From a virus: 64,000 nt of DNA. This document shows, one piece after another, positions 22,387 to 30,227 of the stretch (its first letter is position 1; each line of letters opens with the position of its first letter). Location: IMG/VR virus record IMGVR_UViG_3300028840_003906. One strand, 5' to 3'. The position numbers were made by a program, and so were the translations under genes. The notes beneath the pieces are model-generated. The model worked only from the letters and a program-made list of their open reading frames with translations, ran no database searches and had not been told where the DNA came from.

Positions 22387-23172
22387 ATGCCAAGGAAAGA
22401 AGAGCCGGTCAAGGCGGTCTGCGATGGATCGAGGGATGGTGATACGACGGAAACACATCCGGCGTTCGGCCAGATCCTTGTTTCAAAGAGGAGTCATGGA
22501 GGGGCGTGTAGGCTCTACGGGACTCCGTTGGACTTTCATCCTAGCACGATCAGTATCACGATCAGGCATTCGGAGCGTATTCATGGGCTGTCACATGATC
22601 GGTACTATGCGCGTGGTTTGCCAATTACTGAGATCGAAATGTCGGCAGCGCAGTTTACTGAGATGCTCATGGGAATGAACGAGGGTGGCGGCATTCCTTG
22701 CACGATTCGGGCGACCGAGTCGGACCAAAACATCCCGGCGATTCCATTCGATGACATGAATGAGGTCGAGAGGATCGAGCAGCATTTCACGGATGACGTC
22801 GAAGAACTCAATGCGAAGGTCCGGAAGATGCGGGACCGGGCCGAGGAATTGCTTTCTCAGCCCAGGCTCAAGAAGGCGGACAAGAATGAGCTGCTCGGGC
22901 TGATCTCTCTGGTTCAGAGGTTCTACTGGGATCACTCTCCATTTGTAATGAAGTCCTTCCGTGAGTCGGTGCAGAATGGGGTCAATGTGGCCAAGCGTGA
23001 GCTGGATGCTTTCATTGGCGTCATGGCGCAGCAAACAGGAATCGATGCTCTTCGGAGCATGTCGGTTCCGGATCAGATGCGAAAACTGGCAGGTCCGTCG
23101 GATGAGCAGCAGCGACTCCCGGAGAAGCCAAACAACGATCCGGGCGAAGATTTCCCGGAAGAGGAGAAGTGA
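22387..23172 (+). CDS. phage hypothetical protein
   Basis: 261-aa ORF after TTGACA-17-TATTAC promoter. Confidence 0.75.
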   Translation: MPRKEEPVKAVCDGSRDGDTTETHPAFGQILVSKRSHGGACRLYGTPLDFHPSTISITIRHSERIHGLSHDRYYARGLPITEIEMSAAQFTEMLMGMNEGGGIPCTIRATESDQNIPAIPFDDMNEVERIEQHFTDDVEELNAKVRKMRDRAEELLSQPRLKKADKNELLGLISLVQRFYWDHSPFVMKSFRESVQNGVNVAKRELDAFIGVMAQQTGIDALRSMSVPDQMRKLAGPSDEQQRLPEKPNNDPGEDFPEEEK

Positions 23173-23174
23173 AG

Positions 23175-23975
23175 ATGAAAAAGGTGCATTTGTTGTTGAT
23201 CGATCCGCAGAACGATTTTGCGAACCCGTCGGGATCTCTGTTTGTCCCGGGGGCCGACCTGGACATGGAGCGCGTGTCCCAGATGATCAAGCGCGTCGGA
23301 GACAAGCTGGCGGACATTCACGTCACGCTGGACCAGCATCATCTCCTGGATGTCGCGCATCCGTCGATGTGGAAGGATCAGGACGGGAATCAGCCCGCCC
23401 CGTTCACGATCATCACGGCCGGTGACATTCGCAACGGAGTGTGGTCCACGGTGATGCCGTCCTTGACGGACCGTATGGTCGCGTACACCGAGGCGCTGGA
23501 GGCTGGGGGTCGGTACCCGCTCTGTATCTGGCCGCCACACTGCCTGATTGGAACACCGGGGGCCAACATCGTCGCGCCGATCCGGGATGCGCTCGACTTC
23601 TGGGTGGGACAGAGCCCGTCGACGGTCAACTTCGTGTCCAAGGGGTCGAACATCTGGACGGAGCACTACTCGGGCGTGAAGGCCGAGGTGCCGGATCCCA
23701 GTGACCCCACAACACAGCTCAACACGGGGCTGATTAAGGCCCTGGAAGATGCGGACGAGATTCTCATCGCGGGCGAGGCGGGGTCGCATTGCCTGGCCAA
23801 CACGGTGCGCGACATCGCCGACAACTTCTCGGATGACAGCTTCATCGCCAAGTTCGTGCTGATCGAAGATGGCACGAGCCCGGTTCCGGGTTTCGAGGAC
23901 ATGCAGGACAAGTTCATCGACGAGATGAAGGCGCGCGGGATGCGCACGATCAAGGCGGACGAGGTTCTTCGGTAG
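23175..23975 (+). CDS. pncA: nicotinamidase / isochorismatase-family cysteine hydrolase
   Basis: LLIDPQNDF, TLDQH, WPPHC, SKG, GEAGSHC. Confidence 0.88.
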   Translation: MKKVHLLLIDPQNDFANPSGSLFVPGADLDMERVSQMIKRVGDKLADIHVTLDQHHLLDVAHPSMWKDQDGNQPAPFTIITAGDIRNGVWSTVMPSLTDRMVAYTEALEAGGRYPLCIWPPHCLIGTPGANIVAPIRDALDFWVGQSPSTVNFVSKGSNIWTEHYSGVKAEVPDPSDPTTQLNTGLIKALEDADEILIAGEAGSHCLANTVRDIADNFSDDSFIAKFVLIEDGTSPVPGFEDMQDKFIDEMKARGMRTIKADEVLR

Positions 23976-24043
23976 CCCAGGCCGCAGGAGACGGAAGAAA
24001 AAAAGAAATGTCCCGAGATGGGGCACAACTGAAAGGATGAGAG

Positions 24044-24796
24044 ATGCCGAGATTGAATGACAACGCAATGGAAGAGAAGATCCTTCCCAACACCTCCTTC
24101 GGGTACAGCGCGACTCGGATCGAGGAGCTGGGGGCGACCGAGTACACCCTGGTGGATCTGGTGGTCGATACCAGCGGCAGTGTCGACGCCTTCAAGGGCG
24201 AGATGGAGGCCGCGATCAAGGAGGTGGTCAACGCCTGCAAGAAGTCGCCGAGGGCCGACAATCTGATGATCCGATTCGTGACCTTCGACGACGCCATGGG
24301 CGAGATCCACGGCTACAAGCTCCTGGAGAACTGCAACCTCTCCGACTACGACGGGGTCCTGCAGTGTGGCGGGATGACGGCGCTGTACGACGCCTCCGAG
24401 AACGCGGTCATGTCGGCGACGGACTACGCCAAGGACCTGACCGAGAACGACTTCGCGGTGAACAGCATCGCGATCTTCATCACCGACGGGTGCGACAACC
24501 GGTCGACGGTGAGTCCGGCCTCCGTCAAGAAGGCCCTGGAGGAGGCTGTGCGCGGCGAGGCGACCGAGAGCATGGTCACCATCCTGATCGGGGTCGGAGT
24601 GGGCTCCTACGCCGACGTGAGCAACGCTCTGAAGCGCTTCAAGGACGAGGCCGATCTGACCCAGTACGTCGAGACCAAGGACGCGGACGCCAACACCCTG
24701 GCCAAGCTGGCCGAGTTCGTGTCCAAGTCGATCAGTGCCCAGAGCCAGTCGCTCGGTACGGGCGGGGCGTCGCAGCCCATGTCGCTGAGCATCTAG
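24044..24796 (+). CDS. vWA (TerY-like) domain protein
   Basis: MIDAS VDTSGS, GMTALYDA, ITDG. Confidence 0.9.
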   Translation: MPRLNDNAMEEKILPNTSFGYSATRIEELGATEYTLVDLVVDTSGSVDAFKGEMEAAIKEVVNACKKSPRADNLMIRFVTFDDAMGEIHGYKLLENCNLSDYDGVLQCGGMTALYDASENAVMSATDYAKDLTENDFAVNSIAIFITDGCDNRSTVSPASVKKALEEAVRGEATESMVTILIGVGVGSYADVSNALKRFKDEADLTQYVETKDADANTLAKLAEFVSKSISAQSQSLGTGGASQPMSLSI

Positions 24797-24993
24797 TGCG
24801 TTGTGTTGCCTGCCAGAAGGAGATTCCTTACGGCGGAATTGCGATCAGTTTTGATGGAGATTTCGTCTGTAACCAGGATTGCAAGAGGCTGTACAGGAAG
24901 CAGATGGACTACCTGTGCAGCCAGATTCTTCCGGATGAGGGTCTCACGGAGCAGTACATCATGGGTAAGATCGATATCCCGGAGGATCTCTGA
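24796..24993 (+). CDS. small Cys-rich protein
   Basis: GTG overlapping stop; CVAC...FVCNQDC. Confidence 0.5.
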   Translation: MRCVACQKEIPYGGIAISFDGDFVCNQDCKRLYRKQMDYLCSQILPDEGLTEQYIMGKIDIPEDL

Positions 24994-25005
24994 AGGGGAG
25001 ACGTC

Positions 25006-26082
25006 ATGAAGACATCAGATGAAATTGAAAAAAGGTTCAAGAGTTCGATGCGCAAGGCTGCCATAGCAATTGGGGTTGTGATCACTTTGTTGGTGGTAAC
25101 CATCGTGATTCTTGCTGCCTCGATCTCTGCGGAGATAGATGCCTGCGGTGGTGTGGCTAAGTGCCTTGGGGGGGCTGTCAGGGAGTTCGACGACGCACGG
25201 AAGGGCGAACAGGTTATGCAGGTTGATCATGCTTTTGTAATTGGGGATTCACACAAGGTCTGCGAGGACTACGCGAGATCTGGATTCACGGATGACCGGG
25301 ATGAGCACCAGCCTCACATCGGATACGCTTTTTTGTCTGACGGCTGCTCCGGGAGCGATGACACTGATTTCGGGGCCAGGCTTCTGGTGTCTTCTGCGGA
25401 GGATTTCTTCCGGAGACGGCGAGACATCGAGGATTTGAACGACATGCGGAGCATCATCTTGAATGCTTCGTTCGCTCAGAGGTCTCTCGCGCTGAAGCAG
25501 GAGTGTCTCGATGCTACCCTTCTCGGGGTGTGGGCTGGTTCGAGGGTTCACATTCTTGGGATGGGGGACGGTCTCATCGTCATAAAGATGAAGTCCGGGA
25601 ATATCATCGTGTTCGACATCGAGTCGCCCTGCGGGTACCCGATCTACCCTTCGTATCTCCTCGATCGGTATCGCCTTCAGGGAGTGCAGAAGGAGATGCA
25701 GAAGGTTGAAGAGAAGGGGTGGCATGTTGGGTATACCTTCTTTGGCGAGGATGGCTTCGTGGATTACGACAAGCGATTCTTCTGGAGCAACAATGCAGCG
25801 GTCTTCATGCAGGAGTGGTCCCGGGATGATGAGGATGATCATGATGGGGACTGCATCGAGACGGTGGCCTTGTTCTCTGACGGCGTGAAGAGCTTCTTGG
25901 ACAGTAGACGTGAGACGGTTCCATGGGAGGCCGTTGTTCGCGAGATGATCGCATTCAAGGGCCACAGGGGGCAGTTTGTAAAGAGGCGGATGCATGGCTT
26001 CCTGCGCGCGTGTGAGCGAAGGGGATGGAGCCATCATGACGATGTCTCGATGGCGGCTGTGTACCTCGGAAGCAGTGGTTGA
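25006..26082 (+). CDS. PP2C-like phosphatase; N-terminal TM segment or internal start at 25216
   Basis: CEDY, LSDGCSG, GMGDG, SDG, HHDDVS. Confidence 0.88.
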   Translation: MKTSDEIEKRFKSSMRKAAIAIGVVITLLVVTIVILAASISAEIDACGGVAKCLGGAVREFDDARKGEQVMQVDHAFVIGDSHKVCEDYARSGFTDDRDEHQPHIGYAFLSDGCSGSDDTDFGARLLVSSAEDFFRRRRDIEDLNDMRSIILNASFAQRSLALKQECLDATLLGVWAGSRVHILGMGDGLIVIKMKSGNIIVFDIESPCGYPIYPSYLLDRYRLQGVQKEMQKVEEKGWHVGYTFFGEDGFVDYDKRFFWSNNAAVFMQEWSRDDEDDHDGDCIETVALFSDGVKSFLDSRRETVPWEAVVREMIAFKGHRGQFVKRRMHGFLRACERRGWSHHDDVSMAAVYLGSSG

Positions 26083-26152
26083 CAAACCGGAATTGTGATG
26101 CAATAGTGTCCTCAAGATCGCTGCCAAGGTGGCAGCAGAAGGAGTTCAGGGA

Positions 26153-27373
26153 ATGGAATCAATTATCACGAGTTTGCTGGACAACGACATGTACAAGTTC
26201 TCGATGCAGAGTGCTGCGTTCGAGCTTTTTCCTGATGCGATGGTCGAGTATGCCTTGATCTTCCGGCATGAGGCGGGGCTTCCGGCTGGGTTCAGAGTAT
26301 GTCCTTCGGGGTTTGTTGCGGAGCTTCGGCGCCAGATCGATGCGCTTTGCGAACTCAAGTTCGCCGAGGATGAGATTGACTATCTCTGTCAGATTTGTCC
26401 TTTCTTGAGTAGCGAGTATCTGGACTGGCTCCTGAAGTTCAAGTTGTCATCGCTGAATATTCGCGTCATGGACAACGGCGTGGCCATGCCGGGGATCAGG
26501 ATCCAGGGGTCTTGGATCGATACGATCCTCTTCGAGGTTCCATTGATGGCAATCATCTCGGAGTTGTACTTCAAGATGAGCCCGCCGTCTCGCAGGCGAC
26601 CGATTGCTGTCCTGGATCAGCAGGACATGGGAAAGGCTGTTGCTCTGTCTGAGGTGGCGCCGTTCGTTGAGATGGGAACGCGCAGGCGGTTTTCGAAGTC
26701 AAATCAGAAGCGTGTCGTCAGCATTCTGAAGAACTACGGTGGCATGAATTTCATGGGGACCAGTAATGTTCTTCTTGCGCGCGACCTTGGGATCAAGCCG
26801 ATCGGGACCATGGCGCACGAGTGGATCATGTTTCACGCGGCGGCATACGGGTACCGGTCAGCGAACCAGAAGGCCATGGAGGGATGGGAGGATGTGTTCG
26901 GTGAGAATCACGACATGCTCCTGGCCCTGACCGATACGTACACGACGGGGACATTCTTCGAGAACATGGATCCCGGCAACGGGATACCGACTGACATTTT
27001 TGATTGGAAGGGGTTCAGACAGGACAGCGGGGATCCTTCGGTCTTCATTTCGAGGCTCAGGAGGTTCTTCTTCGAGAACCAAGCTCCGATGGGGAACAAG
27101 ACGGTCGTGTTTTCGGATGGGCTGAGCGTCGATGATGTCCAGGGGATCCATGGCCAGGTCGAAGGCGACTTCAAAGACGTTTACGGGATCGGGACACACT
27201 TCTCGAATGATGTCGGTGCGAAACCGTTGAACATGGTCATAAAGATGACGGCTGCTGACCCATGTGGGTGCGGGTACATGATCCCAACGGTGAAGCTGTC
27301 GGATACCAAGGGGAAGCACACGGGGAGATCTGAAGTGGTCGAGAACTGCAAGTGGCAGCTTGGAATCGAATAG
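26153..27373 (+). CDS. pncB: nicotinate phosphoribosyltransferase
   Basis: LLDNDMYKFSM, ILFEVPLMA, EMGTRRR, GTSN, GTMAHEW, LTDT, RQDSG, VFSDGL, GIGT. Confidence 0.95.
   Translation: MESIITSLLDNDMYKFSMQSAAFELFPDAMVEYALIFRHEAGLPAGFRVCPSGFVAELRRQIDALCELKFAEDEIDYLCQICPFLSSEYLDWLLKFKLSSLNIRVMDNGVAMPGIRIQGSWIDTILFEVPLMAIISELYFKMSPPSRRRPIAVLDQQDMGKAVALSEVAPFVEMGTRRRFSKSNQKRVVSILKNYGGMNFMGTSNVLLARDLGIKPIGTMAHEWIMFHAAAYGYRSANQKAMEGWEDVFGENHDMLLALTDTYTTGTFFENMDPGNGIPTDIFDWKGFRQDSGDPSVFISRLRRFFFENQAPMGNKTVVFSDGLSVDDVQGIHGQVEGDFKDVYGIGTHFSNDVGAKPLNMVIKMTAADPCGCGYMIPTVKLSDTKGKHTGRSEVVENCKWQLGIE
26350..26363. promoter_or_regulatory. LexA-type box copy 7 (reverse, intragenic)
   Basis: CGAACTCAAGTTCG within pncB. 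Confidence 0.6.
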
Positions 27374-27382
27374 GAGGATCTG

Positions 27383-28174
27383 ATGGAAGAATATGTTCTG
27401 CGGGTGCTGGAGAGGGAGATCGACAATGTTGTCGAGTGGATTCGGAACTTCGTGAAGAATGCCGGTGCGGACGGCGTGGTGGTAGGGCTCAGCGGTGGAG
27501 TGGACTCTGCGGTTGTGGCTGCGCTGGCGGTCAAGGCGCTGGGGGTGGACAACGTGACAGCCTTGGCTCTCCCATGCGAATCGGACCCATCTGACCTGGA
27601 AGACGCGCAGTTGGTGGCCGATCATCTCGATCTGGGGTTGTCGGTCTACGATCTTGAGGTTCCATTCAATGTTTTCAGGGTCTATCTTGATGTGGACAAG
27701 TTCCAAGGGATCATGCCGGAAAACAACAGGCTGAAGAATGCGAACGGAAATCTGAAGGCTCGGATGCGGATGACGGCCCTCTACAACGAGGCGCTGCTGA
27801 GCAACTACCTGGTCATCGGGACTGGCAACAAGAGCGAGCTGGCGGTTGGTTACATCACAAAGTGGGGCGATGGCGGGGTTGACTTCGAGCCTCTCGGCGA
27901 CTTTTACAAGACGGAGGTGGTCGAGATGGCTCGGATGCTTGGGTTGCCGGAGCGGATCTGTTCTCGTACGCCGACACCGGGGAATGTGAAGGGCGTGACT
28001 GACGAAGGTGAGCTTGGGATGAATTACAAGGACCTGGACCTGGAGCTGAAGCGCATCAATAACATTCGACCGGAATGCATCTCGGGAGACCGAACAAAGA
28101 AGGTCGTCGATATGATCAAGAATGCGTATCACAAGAAGAAGATGCCTCCGTTCTTCGATCGGAGGTTGGGCTGA
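27383..28174 (+). CDS. nadE: NH3-dependent NAD+ synthetase
   Basis: GLSGGVDSA, NLKARMRM, GTGNKSE, TKWGDGG; no glutaminase domain. Confidence 0.95.
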   Translation: MEEYVLRVLEREIDNVVEWIRNFVKNAGADGVVVGLSGGVDSAVVAALAVKALGVDNVTALALPCESDPSDLEDAQLVADHLDLGLSVYDLEVPFNVFRVYLDVDKFQGIMPENNRLKNANGNLKARMRMTALYNEALLSNYLVIGTGNKSELAVGYITKWGDGGVDFEPLGDFYKTEVVEMARMLGLPERICSRTPTPGNVKGVTDEGELGMNYKDLDLELKRINNIRPECISGDRTKKVVDMIKNAYHKKKMPPFFDRRLG

Positions 28175-28542
28175 TGTTCAACGTGGTGATTGCCGGTGGG
28201 CGTGACTTTGACGATTACGCCCTGTTGAAGAGCAAGATGGACAGCCTCTTGTCTGCGAGGGTGAAGGCGGAAGGTGGGATCTTGGTCATCAGTGGCGGCG
28301 CGAAGGGTGCCGATACTCTCGGCGAGAAGTATGCAGAGGAGAACGAACTCATCATCGCGAGGTTTACGCCTGACTGGGATCGTTTCGGGAAGGCTGCTGG
28401 CCCGAAAAGGAATGCTGAGATGGCGAAGGCAGCTGACGCTGTGGTAGTATTCTGGGACGGGGCGTCCAGGGGTTCCATGAGCATGATTGAAGAGGCCAAG
28501 AAGCACGATTGTATGTTGCGTGTTGTGAGGTATCAGAAATGA
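28174..28542 (+). CDS. SLOG superfamily (YspA/DUF2493-like) protein
   Basis: IAGGRDF, ISGGAKGAD, GKAAGPKRN, FWDG.SRG. Confidence 0.9.
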   Translation: MFNVVIAGGRDFDDYALLKSKMDSLLSARVKAEGGILVISGGAKGADTLGEKYAEENELIIARFTPDWDRFGKAAGPKRNAEMAKAADAVVVFWDGASRGSMSMIEEAKKHDCMLRVVRYQK

Positions 28543-30227
28543 GGTATAAGCTCGCTGGCGGTGGAAATGTGAGCCTCTCGAAACGTGAATTCGTTGGGGC
28601 TGGTGGCGAAGGATCTGTCTACGTCAAAGGGGCGAACGCGTACAAAATTTATGCGGACCCGTCTCGGATGATTCCGGAGGGGAAGATCCGGGAGCTGTCC
28701 TCCATCTCGGACTCCAAGGTCATCAAGCCGATCGATGTGTTGCTCGGAAAGAACAACAGGCCGGTCGGGTATTCCATGGGGTTCGTAAAGGATGCGATTC
28801 CTATTTGTCAGCTTTTCACGAAGGCGTACAAGAAGCGGAACGGAATCGGGACATCGGATGTCGTCGACATCGTCAAGTGCATGCAGAGCAGCCTTGTCGA
28901 CATTCACTCGGCTGGCGTCCTGGTTGTCGATCTGAACGAGATGAACCTTCTGGTTCGATCCGGGGACGTTTTCTGGATCGATGTGGACAGCTACCAGACG
29001 CGGAGTTATCCGGCGACGGCGATTATGGACAGTGTTCGGGACTGGAAGGCGAACGGGAGATGGTCCAAGGAGACCGACTGGTTTTCATGGGGGATCGTGA
29101 CTTTCCAGTTGTTCGCCGGGATTCACCCGTTCAAGGGGAAGCACCCAAATGTCAAGAAGATGTCCGATCGGATGCTGAATGGGATTTCGGTATTCAACGC
29201 GGATGTGAGCGTCCCGAAGATGGTCCCGAGTTTTGACCTGATACCCAAGGAGTACCGGGATTGGTATCGGGCTGTCTTTGAGGACGGGAAGCGGTGCCCG
29301 CCTCCGAGCGTGATTGAGAAGCTGGCGGTGCAGATTGTTCCACGTCGAATTTCCAGCACGGATCTCATTGAGATCTTCGAGCTGGCCGAGTTCGACAGCG
29401 ATGTCGCTCTCGTCGATTCGATCGGCGCGTTTGAGATGGTGGCGACAGAGGGTGGGTTTTCTAAATCAAGGAGCTGGAAGGGTGGGCAGGTTGAGGCAGA
29501 CACACCTCAGTTCTTCGCCGCTACAACGAAAGGAGTGCCGATCCTTGGGGCGGTAGACAGGGGGCGGGTGCAGCTCCGTGATTCGGCGTCTGGGGCGGAA
29601 ATAGGGGAACCCTGGGCGGCCAGGGGGGCGATGGTGTACGAGGGCCGCATCTATAGCCAGATGGGCGAGAACATTGTCGAGGCTGAGGTCCGGGAGGTTG
29701 GTAACGGAAAGCATCTCGTGTCGCAGAGGGTTGTGGCGAATGTGATGCCGGAGGCGACCCAGATTTTCGACGGGGTTGTGATCCAGAACATGCTCGGGAG
29801 TTGGTACGCTTCAGTGTTCCCGGAGTCCGGGAAGAACTACCAGGTTTGGCTGGAGGATCTGGATGGGTACCGTCTTGTGGACGCGAAGCACGACCGAGGG
29901 GTCTTGATCGTGATCGGGGAGAAGTTGGGCAAGTACGACAAATTTGTGTACCGCTTCGAGCGCGGGTACGTACGCGCGATCATGTTCTGGAAGGATGCGG
30001 ACATCTCCTATCAGGGGATCAACTTTGTGACACTGGAGAAGGGGGTGTGCGCTCACATTGATGAGAATGAGGACCTGGTCCTCTTTGGTTCTCGGCCAGG
30101 CTACGGAGATGTCAAGAAGATCCAGGATCCTGTTCTCGGGGGCGACATGCGGCTTTTCAAGAAGAACGACGATGTCCTTTTCGCGAAGGGGAACAAGGTC
30201 TTCAGGTTGAGCATGAGGAAGAAATGA
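28539..30227 (+). CDS. Ser/Thr kinase-like protein (TerY-P triad type) with long C-terminal region
   Basis: GAGGEG loop, AYKIY, VVDLNEMN, IDVDSY. Confidence 0.88.
   Translation: MRYKLAGGGNVSLSKREFVGAGGEGSVYVKGANAYKIYADPSRMIPEGKIRELSSISDSKVIKPIDVLLGKNNRPVGYSMGFVKDAIPICQLFTKAYKKRNGIGTSDVVDIVKCMQSSLVDIHSAGVLVVDLNEMNLLVRSGDVFWIDVDSYQTRSYPATAIMDSVRDWKANGRWSKETDWFSWGIVTFQLFAGIHPFKGKHPNVKKMSDRMLNGISVFNADVSVPKMVPSFDLIPKEYRDWYRAVFEDGKRCPPPSVIEKLAVQIVPRRISSTDLIEIFELAEFDSDVALVDSIGAFEMVATEGGFSKSRSWKGGQVEADTPQFFAATTKGVPILGAVDRGRVQLRDSASGAEIGEPWAARGAMVYEGRIYSQMGENIVEAEVREVGNGKHLVSQRVVANVMPEATQIFDGVVIQNMLGSWYASVFPESGKNYQVWLEDLDGYRLVDAKHDRGVLIVIGEKLGKYDKFVYRFERGYVRAIMFWKDADISYQGINFVTLEKGVCAHIDENEDLVLFGSRPGYGDVKKIQDPVLGGDMRLFKKNDDVLFAKGNKVFRLSMRKK

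Follow-up and report, generated by a model that had tools for sequence, protein, structure and literature searches.

Gene Content of the Locus

The DNA analysed here (the window) is a stretch of 64,000 nucleotides from a virus in the IMG/VR database (record IMGVR_UViG_3300028840_003906), and corresponds to bases 120-64119 of a 124,752-base viral contig, referred to as G000. The window contains a locus of plus-strand genes for the synthesis of nicotinamide adenine dinucleotide (NAD+), which are predicted to encode a nicotinamidase (PncA-like), a nicotinate phosphoribosyltransferase (NAPRTase; PncB) and an NH3-dependent NAD+ synthetase (NadE). These are interleaved with genes for a vWA protein, a PP2C-type phosphatase and a kinase-like protein with a C-terminal beta-propeller. 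The best explanation, which we hold with moderate confidence, is that the phage possesses its own copy of a widespread PncA/vWA/PP2C/kinase-propeller cassette, to which PncB and NadE have been added in this lineage for NAD+ recycling by way of the NadD enzyme of the host.

The open reading frames (ORFs) of the locus cover positions 23175-30227 with almost no gaps (Table 1). An earlier reading of the window, made from the letters alone (the sequence-only reading), had described the nicotinamidase, PncB and NadE genes with intact motifs, and all three were found to be present, on the plus strand and intact. The NAD genes are not contiguous: the vWA gene, a 68-aa ORF and the PP2C gene lie between pncA and pncB, and the kinase gene follows a SLOG gene. 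The ribosome-binding sites and the stop/start overlaps give the locus an operon-like packing. The nadE stop codon overlaps the SLOG ATG at 28174 (TGATG), which confirmed the previously noted coupling of these two genes, and the SLOG gene is likewise coupled in translation to the kinase gene, as its stop codon shares an ATGA with the ATG at 28539. An ATGA overlap is also present at the junction of the 68-aa ORF and the PP2C gene. The 68-aa ORF had no family matches and no tblastn matches in the related loci.

The pncB gene had also been credited with its own TTGACA promoter. A promoter-like site is present, and a second TTGACA was found at the equivalent position, overlapping the PP2C stop codon, in the closest relative of the phage (G001, described below). 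However, such sites occur at chance frequency, as the region contains four against 3.8 expected from shuffled sequence.

Table 1. Features of the NAD locus, with positions in the window.
Feature	Position	Strand	Basis
Nicotinamidase (PncA-like), 266 aa, divergent subfamily, ~45-residue insertion	23175..23975	+	Motifs, AlphaFold2 model, Foldseek
vWA protein, intact MIDAS, Ser/Gln-rich C-terminal tail	24044..24796	+	Pfam VWA below cut-off; motif conservation
Putative 68-aa ORF	24803..25009	+	ORF only; 3' end overlaps PP2C start
PP2C-type phosphatase, hydrophobic N-terminal segment	25006..26082	+	PF13672
Promoter-like site TTGACA-17-TGcAATAGT	26079..26107	+	10/12 consensus matches; overlaps PP2C stop
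PncB, nicotinate phosphoribosyltransferase, 406 aa	26153..27373	+	TIGR01514
NadE, NH3-dependent NAD+ synthetase, 263 aa	27383..28174	+	TIGR00552
YAcAr-family SLOG protein, 122 aa	28174..28542	+	PF10686, phrog_289
Atypical Ser/Thr-kinase-like domain with C-terminal beta-propeller	28539..30227	+	Pkinase below cut-off; motifs; structure

Immediately 5' of pncA lies an ORF (22387-23172) of the family phrog_6452, which is of unknown function, with 69% identity to its counterpart in G001. Its stop codon is located 2 nt ahead of the pncA ATG, and the ORF may share the pncA transcription unit.

Identity of the Nicotinamidase, PncB and NadE

The nicotinamidase ORF opens at a GTG at position 23169, and a GAGGAG sequence is located 8 nt 5' of the ATG. 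The protein scores below the family cut-offs, with 24.3 bits to the Pfam Isochorismatase family (PF00857, cut-off 27) and 26 bits to NCBIfam PRK11609 (NF008623, cut-off 174). Nevertheless, the catalytic triad (D10/K156/C206), which aligns with that of yeast Pnc1, and the metal ligands (D53/H55/H122) are invariant across 40 diverse homologues. An Asp-His-His metal site distinguishes nicotinamidases from other isochorismatase-like hydrolases. The AlphaFold2 model has a pLDDT score (predicted local distance difference test) of 96.1, and the top 12 PDB matches obtained with Foldseek are all nicotinamidases. The family comprises 5,223 proteins at E ≤ 0.001, mostly of 265-270 aa. On the basis of the motifs and the model, the protein is predicted to be a divergent, catalytically complete nicotinamidase.

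PncB scores 318.8 bits to TIGR01514, above the equivalog cut-off of 269.55, and contains both NAPRTase domains (PF17767 and PF04095). Its GTMAHEW motif aligns with GTHPHEW of the best PDB match, 2IM5, and the histidine, which we take to be the autophosphorylation site of the GTxAHEW motif, is conserved. The match to the phage Nampt family is weak (24 bits). The ORF opens at a GTG at 26129, and the likely start is the ATG at 26153, which is preceded by AGGAG.

NadE scores 223 bits to TIGR00552 (cut-off 63.65). It has an SGGVDS PP-loop and lacks a glutaminase domain. Its closest structural matches are 2E18 from Pyrococcus, which is the best match, 3P52, and the Francisella nicotinamide mononucleotide (NMN) synthetase 3FIU; the structural neighbours thus include both the enzymes that act on nicotinate adenine dinucleotide (NaAD) and the NMN synthetase. 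As had been proposed, the enzyme set points to a Preiss-Handler-type route, from nicotinamide to nicotinate and nicotinate mononucleotide (NaMN), and from NaAD to NAD+.

Source Genome and Related Viruses

G000 was estimated to be 68% complete by CheckV, and has no terminal repeats. The window has a G+C content of approximately 55%, and the GC skew is positive across all 2-kb windows. A DNA search of isolated phages gave no matches to the window, and within the phage collection searched, the nicotinamidase was confined to uncultured huge-phage records. Identical copies of PncA and PncB are present on a contig of 184,888 bases, and the size of the phage genome is approximately 185-195 kb. The closest relative, G001, is 194,905 bases long, carries terminal repeats and was rated 100% complete; a second complete sister genome, G003, has 176,267 bases. 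The 3' end of G000 (121,000-124,752, outside the window) falls inside collagen-like repeat genes, which probably explain the assembly break at this end.

The locus is syntenic in G001, with identities of 76% for PncA, 77% for vWA, 51% for PncB, 57% for NadE and 60% for the kinase, and with PP2C also present. G003 keeps PncA, vWA, PP2C and the kinase intact. Its pncB is reduced to a 121-aa N-terminal stub (L015:13744-14109), NadE is missing at the cassette locus, and the NAPRTase catalytic domain was found nowhere in the genome.

A scan of viral contigs for the nicotinamidase identified 61 loci, in which profiles of the NAD genes were searched within 10 kb. The genes for vWA, PP2C and the kinase adjoin the nicotinamidase gene in 58 of these loci, usually in that order, and often form with it a bare four-gene unit among otherwise unrelated neighbours. 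No further NAD genes were found in 36 loci. At least one of PncB, NadD and NadE was present in the remaining 25/61, comprising PncB with NadE (10 loci), PncB only (7), NadD only (3), PncB, NadD and NadE together (3), NadE only (1), and NadD with NadE (1). PncB and NadE therefore occur together in 13/61 loci. Taken with the adjacency in 58/61, this indicates that the conserved unit is PncA with the signalling trio, and that PncB, NadE and NadD are recurrent additions, inserted into the cassette repeatedly and in varying orders. The sequence-only reading had treated PncA, PncB and NadE as a set; this has to be revised, as the closest partners of the nicotinamidase are the trio, and G003 has lost nadE and the catalytic domain of pncB.

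NadD was absent from 10 of the 13 cassettes with PncB and NadE and present in three, counts that describe phylogenetically non-independent loci and do not amount to a test. Dependence on the host for this step thus appears to be the common state. In four loci (L033, L036, L055 and L062) the NAD genes, including NadD, lie within the cassette, which points to the standard four-step route as the chemistry intended. ORFs of 658-726 aa in L021, L036, L051 and L055 match the NadE profile weakly (42-68 bits), and, judged by their length, may be glutamine-dependent NAD synthetases. In more distant phage loci that were found through PncB and have no cassette, the order pncB-nadD-nadE was observed in nine of ten. 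These PncB-found phage loci also include a NadD-NadE fusion and a NadD-Nudix fusion (in L005:1859-3235 and L003:11233-12363).

Bacterial Copies, Origin and Selection

Searches of bacterial genomes and metagenome-assembled genomes gave 583 or more matches to the nicotinamidase subfamily. In complete chromosomes of Capsulimonadaceae the gene order is PncA-vWA-PP2C-kinase-PncB, and the neighbours (leuA, leuB, and genes for a sugar kinase, a sigma factor and a flavin reductase) indicate a cellular context and not a prophage. In some bacteria PncA is located immediately beside PncB and the trio is absent. In a FastTree tree of 142 nicotinamidase sequences, for which the support values are local only, the bacterial sequences group by phylum with viral sequences interspersed among them, and the sequence from the window lies in a virus-only clade of seven. 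The tree requires 15 changes between the virus and bacterium labels, of which the well-supported branches force at least five.

The nearest relatives of PncB are phage proteins with 47-49% identity, versus approximately 43% for cellular proteins. A metagenome scan for close relatives of PncB, intended for a short-range comparison of nonsynonymous and synonymous substitution rates (dN/dS), returned none above 49%. For all six genes that were compared with G001, the differences per site amount to 0.43-0.59 at the third codon position and to 0.12-0.35 at the first and second. Judged from these codon positions, the divergence is of the purifying type, with intact ORFs. The PncB identities and the codon-position divergence thus indicate that the genes are not a recent capture from the host under relaxed selection, which the sequence-only reading had named as one outcome that would undo its proposal.

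These distributions bear on an alternative function, in which the removal of nicotinamide is the real purpose of the cassette. PncA and the trio would clear or control nicotinamide, and PncB and NadE would be optional consumers of the product. Clearing could free NAD-consuming enzymes of the phage or the host from inhibition by their product, or could starve the NARP1 and NARP2 pathways of competing phages. The 36/61 viral loci with a cassette and no PncB, NadD or NadE within 10 kb are consistent with this, as are the loss of pncB and nadE from a G003 cassette that is otherwise kept, and the stronger conservation of PncA and vWA (76-77%) against PncB and NadE (51-57%) in G001. However, nicotinamide inhibits SIR2-type NADases, as is established from sirtuin enzymology, and its clearance would favour the host defence. 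Furthermore, the repeated insertion of NAD genes and the PncA-PncB pairing in bacteria argue for the reuse of nicotinate, and where the phage has no PncB, NadD and NadE, those of the host could finish the route. We therefore consider nicotinamide removal an unlikely primary function.

The Adenylyltransferase Step

With respect to NadD, NadM and NadR, no match to CTP_transf_like (PF01467) was found in the whole 124,752 bases of G000, and none above the cut-off in the complete G001. Matches to PRPS-like proteins (PF13793), Nudix, PnuC (PF04973) or a second NAPRTase-family gene were absent from both G000 and G001, as were Nampt and NAD-dependent ligase. The lack of NadD and NadM already seen in the window, and the search for these and for PRPS homologues elsewhere, therefore gave the same picture across the contig (68% of the genome) and in G001. 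The absence of Nudix and of an NAD-dependent ligase also left two candidate ideas unsupported, namely an NrtR-type regulator and the provision of NAD for a phage LigA.

Three ways around the missing enzyme had been put forward in the sequence-only reading: its supply by the host or another locus, amidation of NaMN by NadE, and direct synthesis of NaAD by a PncB using ADP-ribose pyrophosphate (ADPR-PP). The first fits best. NadD is essential in most bacteria, since the de novo and salvage routes converge on NaMN, and host NadD is the most likely source of the missing step.

The latter two would render the route self-sufficient without NadD, with NadE amidating NaMN to NMN, or with PncB acting in a Namat-like manner on ADPR-PP to give NaAD. 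Cassettes with PncB and NadE and no NadD are common (10/13), and NadE belongs to the short NadE group that includes the Francisella NMN synthetase 3FIU, both of which are in keeping with such a route. Against this, NMN would still require an adenylyltransferase, which was not found in G000 or G001, and the best match of NadE is the Pyrococcus enzyme 2E18 rather than 3FIU. No PRPS-like enzyme for making ADPR-PP was found in G000 or the complete G001, and PncB passes the NAPRTase equivalog cut-off, while its Nampt-family match is weak (24 bits). A self-sufficient route of this kind is thus very unlikely.

The pathway would also be complete if the phage encoded an adenylyltransferase beyond the ends of the contig, or one that has diverged past recognition. 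G000 is incomplete and some relatives of the cassette encode NadD. In addition, a 160-aa ORF of G001 (L013:1474-1956, equivalent to G001:171213-171695), located beside a collagen-like gene, carries HxGH and SSSRLR motifs and scores 18-19 bits to CTP_transf_like, below the cut-off. However, no match in the complete G001 exceeds the cut-off. The 160-aa ORF has a single homologue among 5.8 billion proteins, is poorly modelled (pLDDT 49.5) and lacks a PDB match, and it is absent from G000, G003, G004 and G005. It was rejected as a hidden adenylyltransferase, and we regard a complete phage pathway as improbable. A small nucleotidyltransferase in G005 was also set aside, as it resembles a cytidylyltransferase/RfaE-type enzyme and is unrelated.

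The vWA/PP2C/Kinase Trio and the SLOG Gene

The vWA protein scores 23 bits to Pfam VWA, slightly under the cut-off, and its MIDAS motif (DxSxS..T..D) is conserved across 50 homologues. The Ser/Gln-rich C-terminal tail is also conserved and contains several SQ pairs, making it a candidate substrate of the adjacent kinase. PP2C matches PF13672 with 30.8 bits (cut-off 24), and its Asp motifs are conserved across 48 homologues. Its hydrophobic N-terminal segment resembles a membrane anchor; this region is not conserved in the relatives. The kinase scores 30.4 bits to Pkinase, slightly under the cut-off, and retains a glycine-rich loop, the lysine, and the motifs DLNEMN and IDVDS. By structure, its C-terminal 300 residues form a beta-propeller like that of bacterial sensor proteins, for which the nearest Atlas clusters are mostly viral.

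The domain composition of the trio raises the alternative that the cassette is a TerY-P-like system for defence or superinfection exclusion, to which the NAD genes are secondary. Such trios act as stand-alone anti-phage systems (Gao et al. 2020, as cited in PMC11090510), and the three domain types fit. Nevertheless, no TerY-P model of PADLOC matched any of the three proteins: vWA and PP2C were unmatched at E ≤ 0.01, and the kinase was matched weakly to the PD-T4-6 and mad6 models only. Where a TerY-P kinase would have a Zn-ribbon or OB fold, this kinase has a beta-propeller. In addition, the Capsulimonadaceae cassette lies amid leuA, leuB and sugar-kinase genes, and the nicotinamidase is no obvious toxic effector. 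We consider this alternative extremely unlikely.

The SLOG protein scores 57.8 bits to the YAcAr family (PF10686, cut-off 28.2) and 106.9 bits to phrog_289, a common phage family. Jumbo phages were described in 2021 as carrying YAcAr SLOG domains (PMC7824862). None of the 61 related viral loci has the SLOG gene, nor does G001, and the gene is a local, phage-specific insertion unrelated to the NAD module. Its inclusion in the module by the sequence-only reading was accordingly dropped.

Proposed Function of the Cassette

The favoured explanation, NAD+ recycling through host NadD, would proceed in four steps. PncA would convert nicotinamide, the base released on NAD+ cleavage, to nicotinate, and PncB would join nicotinate to phosphoribosyl pyrophosphate (PRPP) in an ATP-driven reaction to yield NaMN. 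Adenylylation of NaMN by host NadD would give NaAD, from which the phage NadE, with ammonia, would form NAD+. As a net result, the infected cell would maintain or regain its NAD+ pool, which would be most useful when this is drained by SIR2/TIR-type host NADases or by the infection itself. The vWA/PP2C/kinase trio would probably act as a phosphorylation switch on the recycling of nicotinamide. An anti-defence role is plausible by likeness to the NARP2 pathway.

Several points weigh against this explanation. The loss in G003 shows that the full salvage route is not required for the core function of the cassette, and that PncB and NadE are dispensable. Given its sub-cut-off scores and its conserved insertion, the nicotinamidase could differ in substrate. 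Hosts usually possess PncA, PncB and NadE of their own, and a gain from the phage copies is assumed. The likeness of the trio to TerY-P is one of domain composition, with the PADLOC models unmatched, and the third of the genome that G000 lacks could encode a phage adenylyltransferase.

A more specific version of the proposal, which we regard as possible and rather doubtful, is that the cassette is a sensor switch, which turns on the recycling of nicotinamide upon NAD+ cleavage, for instance by a SIR2/TIR defence, and which borrows only NadD from the host. If so, phages would have a fourth, mechanistically separate way of countering NAD-depletion immunity, and this would be the first case shown of a metabolic pathway linked to a TerY-P-like phospho-switch.

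The depletion of NAD+ is a major anti-phage strategy of bacteria. Three phage pathways of NAD+ reconstitution have been shown experimentally, none of which runs via nicotinate. Should the present set restore NAD+ during infection, it would provide a fourth route, dependent on a single host enzyme (NadD), and would give a concrete function to a widespread, undescribed cassette of a nicotinamidase with a kinase, phosphatase and vWA protein in bacteria and large phages. If NAD+ is not restored, the set would represent an ordinary auxiliary metabolic module.

Comparison with Known Systems

The sequence-only reading had set the pathway apart from NARP1 and NARP2. This distinction held, and extends to NARP3, as PRPS-like, Nampt, PnuC and NadR genes are all lacking. 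NARP2 consists of Nampt and Nmnat in the Vibrio phage KVP40 (Osterman et al. 2024, bioRxiv 10.1101/2024.02.11.579819), and is an experimental precedent for a phage salvage pathway that overcomes NAD-depleting defences (same source). Like the predicted route, it builds NAD+ from nicotinamide, PRPP and ATP. In contrast, NARP2 is amidated, running through NMN with two enzymes that include its own adenylyltransferase, whereas the route proposed here would be deamidated, with three phage enzymes and no adenylyltransferase. The NARP2 gene set is not matched at this locus, with no second phosphoribosyltransferase, no PF01467 and no Nudix. NARP1 (Adps and Namat) recycles ADP-ribose through ADPR-PP (bioRxiv 10.1101/2024.02.11.579819), and NARP3 (PnuC and NadR) relies on the import of nicotinamide riboside (Sci Adv 2026, PMC13464706). 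Both resemble the present proposal as phage pathways restoring the NAD+ depleted by bacterial immunity. They differ from it in gene content, as there is no PRPS-like Adps (PF13793) here and the sole NAPRTase-family gene is a PncB equivalog, and as neither PF04973 nor PF01467 is present. PncA, PncB, NadE and nicotinic acid are absent from the text of Osterman et al. (bioRxiv 10.1101/2024.02.11.579819), and the NARP1 and NARP2 passages of a November 2026 review do not include a deamidated route (PMC13728456).

A deamidating route in phages is nevertheless not new, contrary to what the sequence-only reading implied. A 2024 paper in Microbiome described, from sequence, Preiss-Handler clusters of jumbo phages (pncB, nadD and nadE; for example, Kuafu_71) as well as phage pncA (PMC11662467). 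These clusters are similar to the present locus in having clustered phage PncB and NadE for deamidated synthesis, in being predicted from sequence only, and in the suggested relation to phage NAD+ needs and counter-defence. They are different in that here NadD is absent, entry is through a nicotinamidase, the trio is interleaved, and the genome is of approximately 185-195 kb as opposed to >200 kb. Bacterial salvage I (PncA-PncB, NadD and NadE) uses the same enzymes in the same reaction order, and the PncA subfamily is also cellular; the present set is viral and has no NadD, and its PncB shares only approximately 43% identity with the nearest cellular one.

In the TerY-P triad, a vWA protein is combined with a PP2C phosphatase and a Ser/Thr kinase (Anantharaman et al. 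2012; Gao et al. 2020; both as cited in PMC11090510). The trio shares with it the three domain types in one operon, an intact MIDAS, and kinase and phosphatase motifs that are apparently active. Unlike TerY-P, it has a beta-propeller instead of a Zn-ribbon or OB fold, and is tied to nicotinamidase and NAD genes, not to restriction or tellurite genes. A text search of the literature found no paper linking a nicotinamidase to a vWA/PP2C/kinase trio. Judged by its predicted genes, the locus varies the phage Preiss-Handler theme in being led by a nicotinamidase and lacking NadD, and is set inside a conserved cassette of the phospho-switch type.

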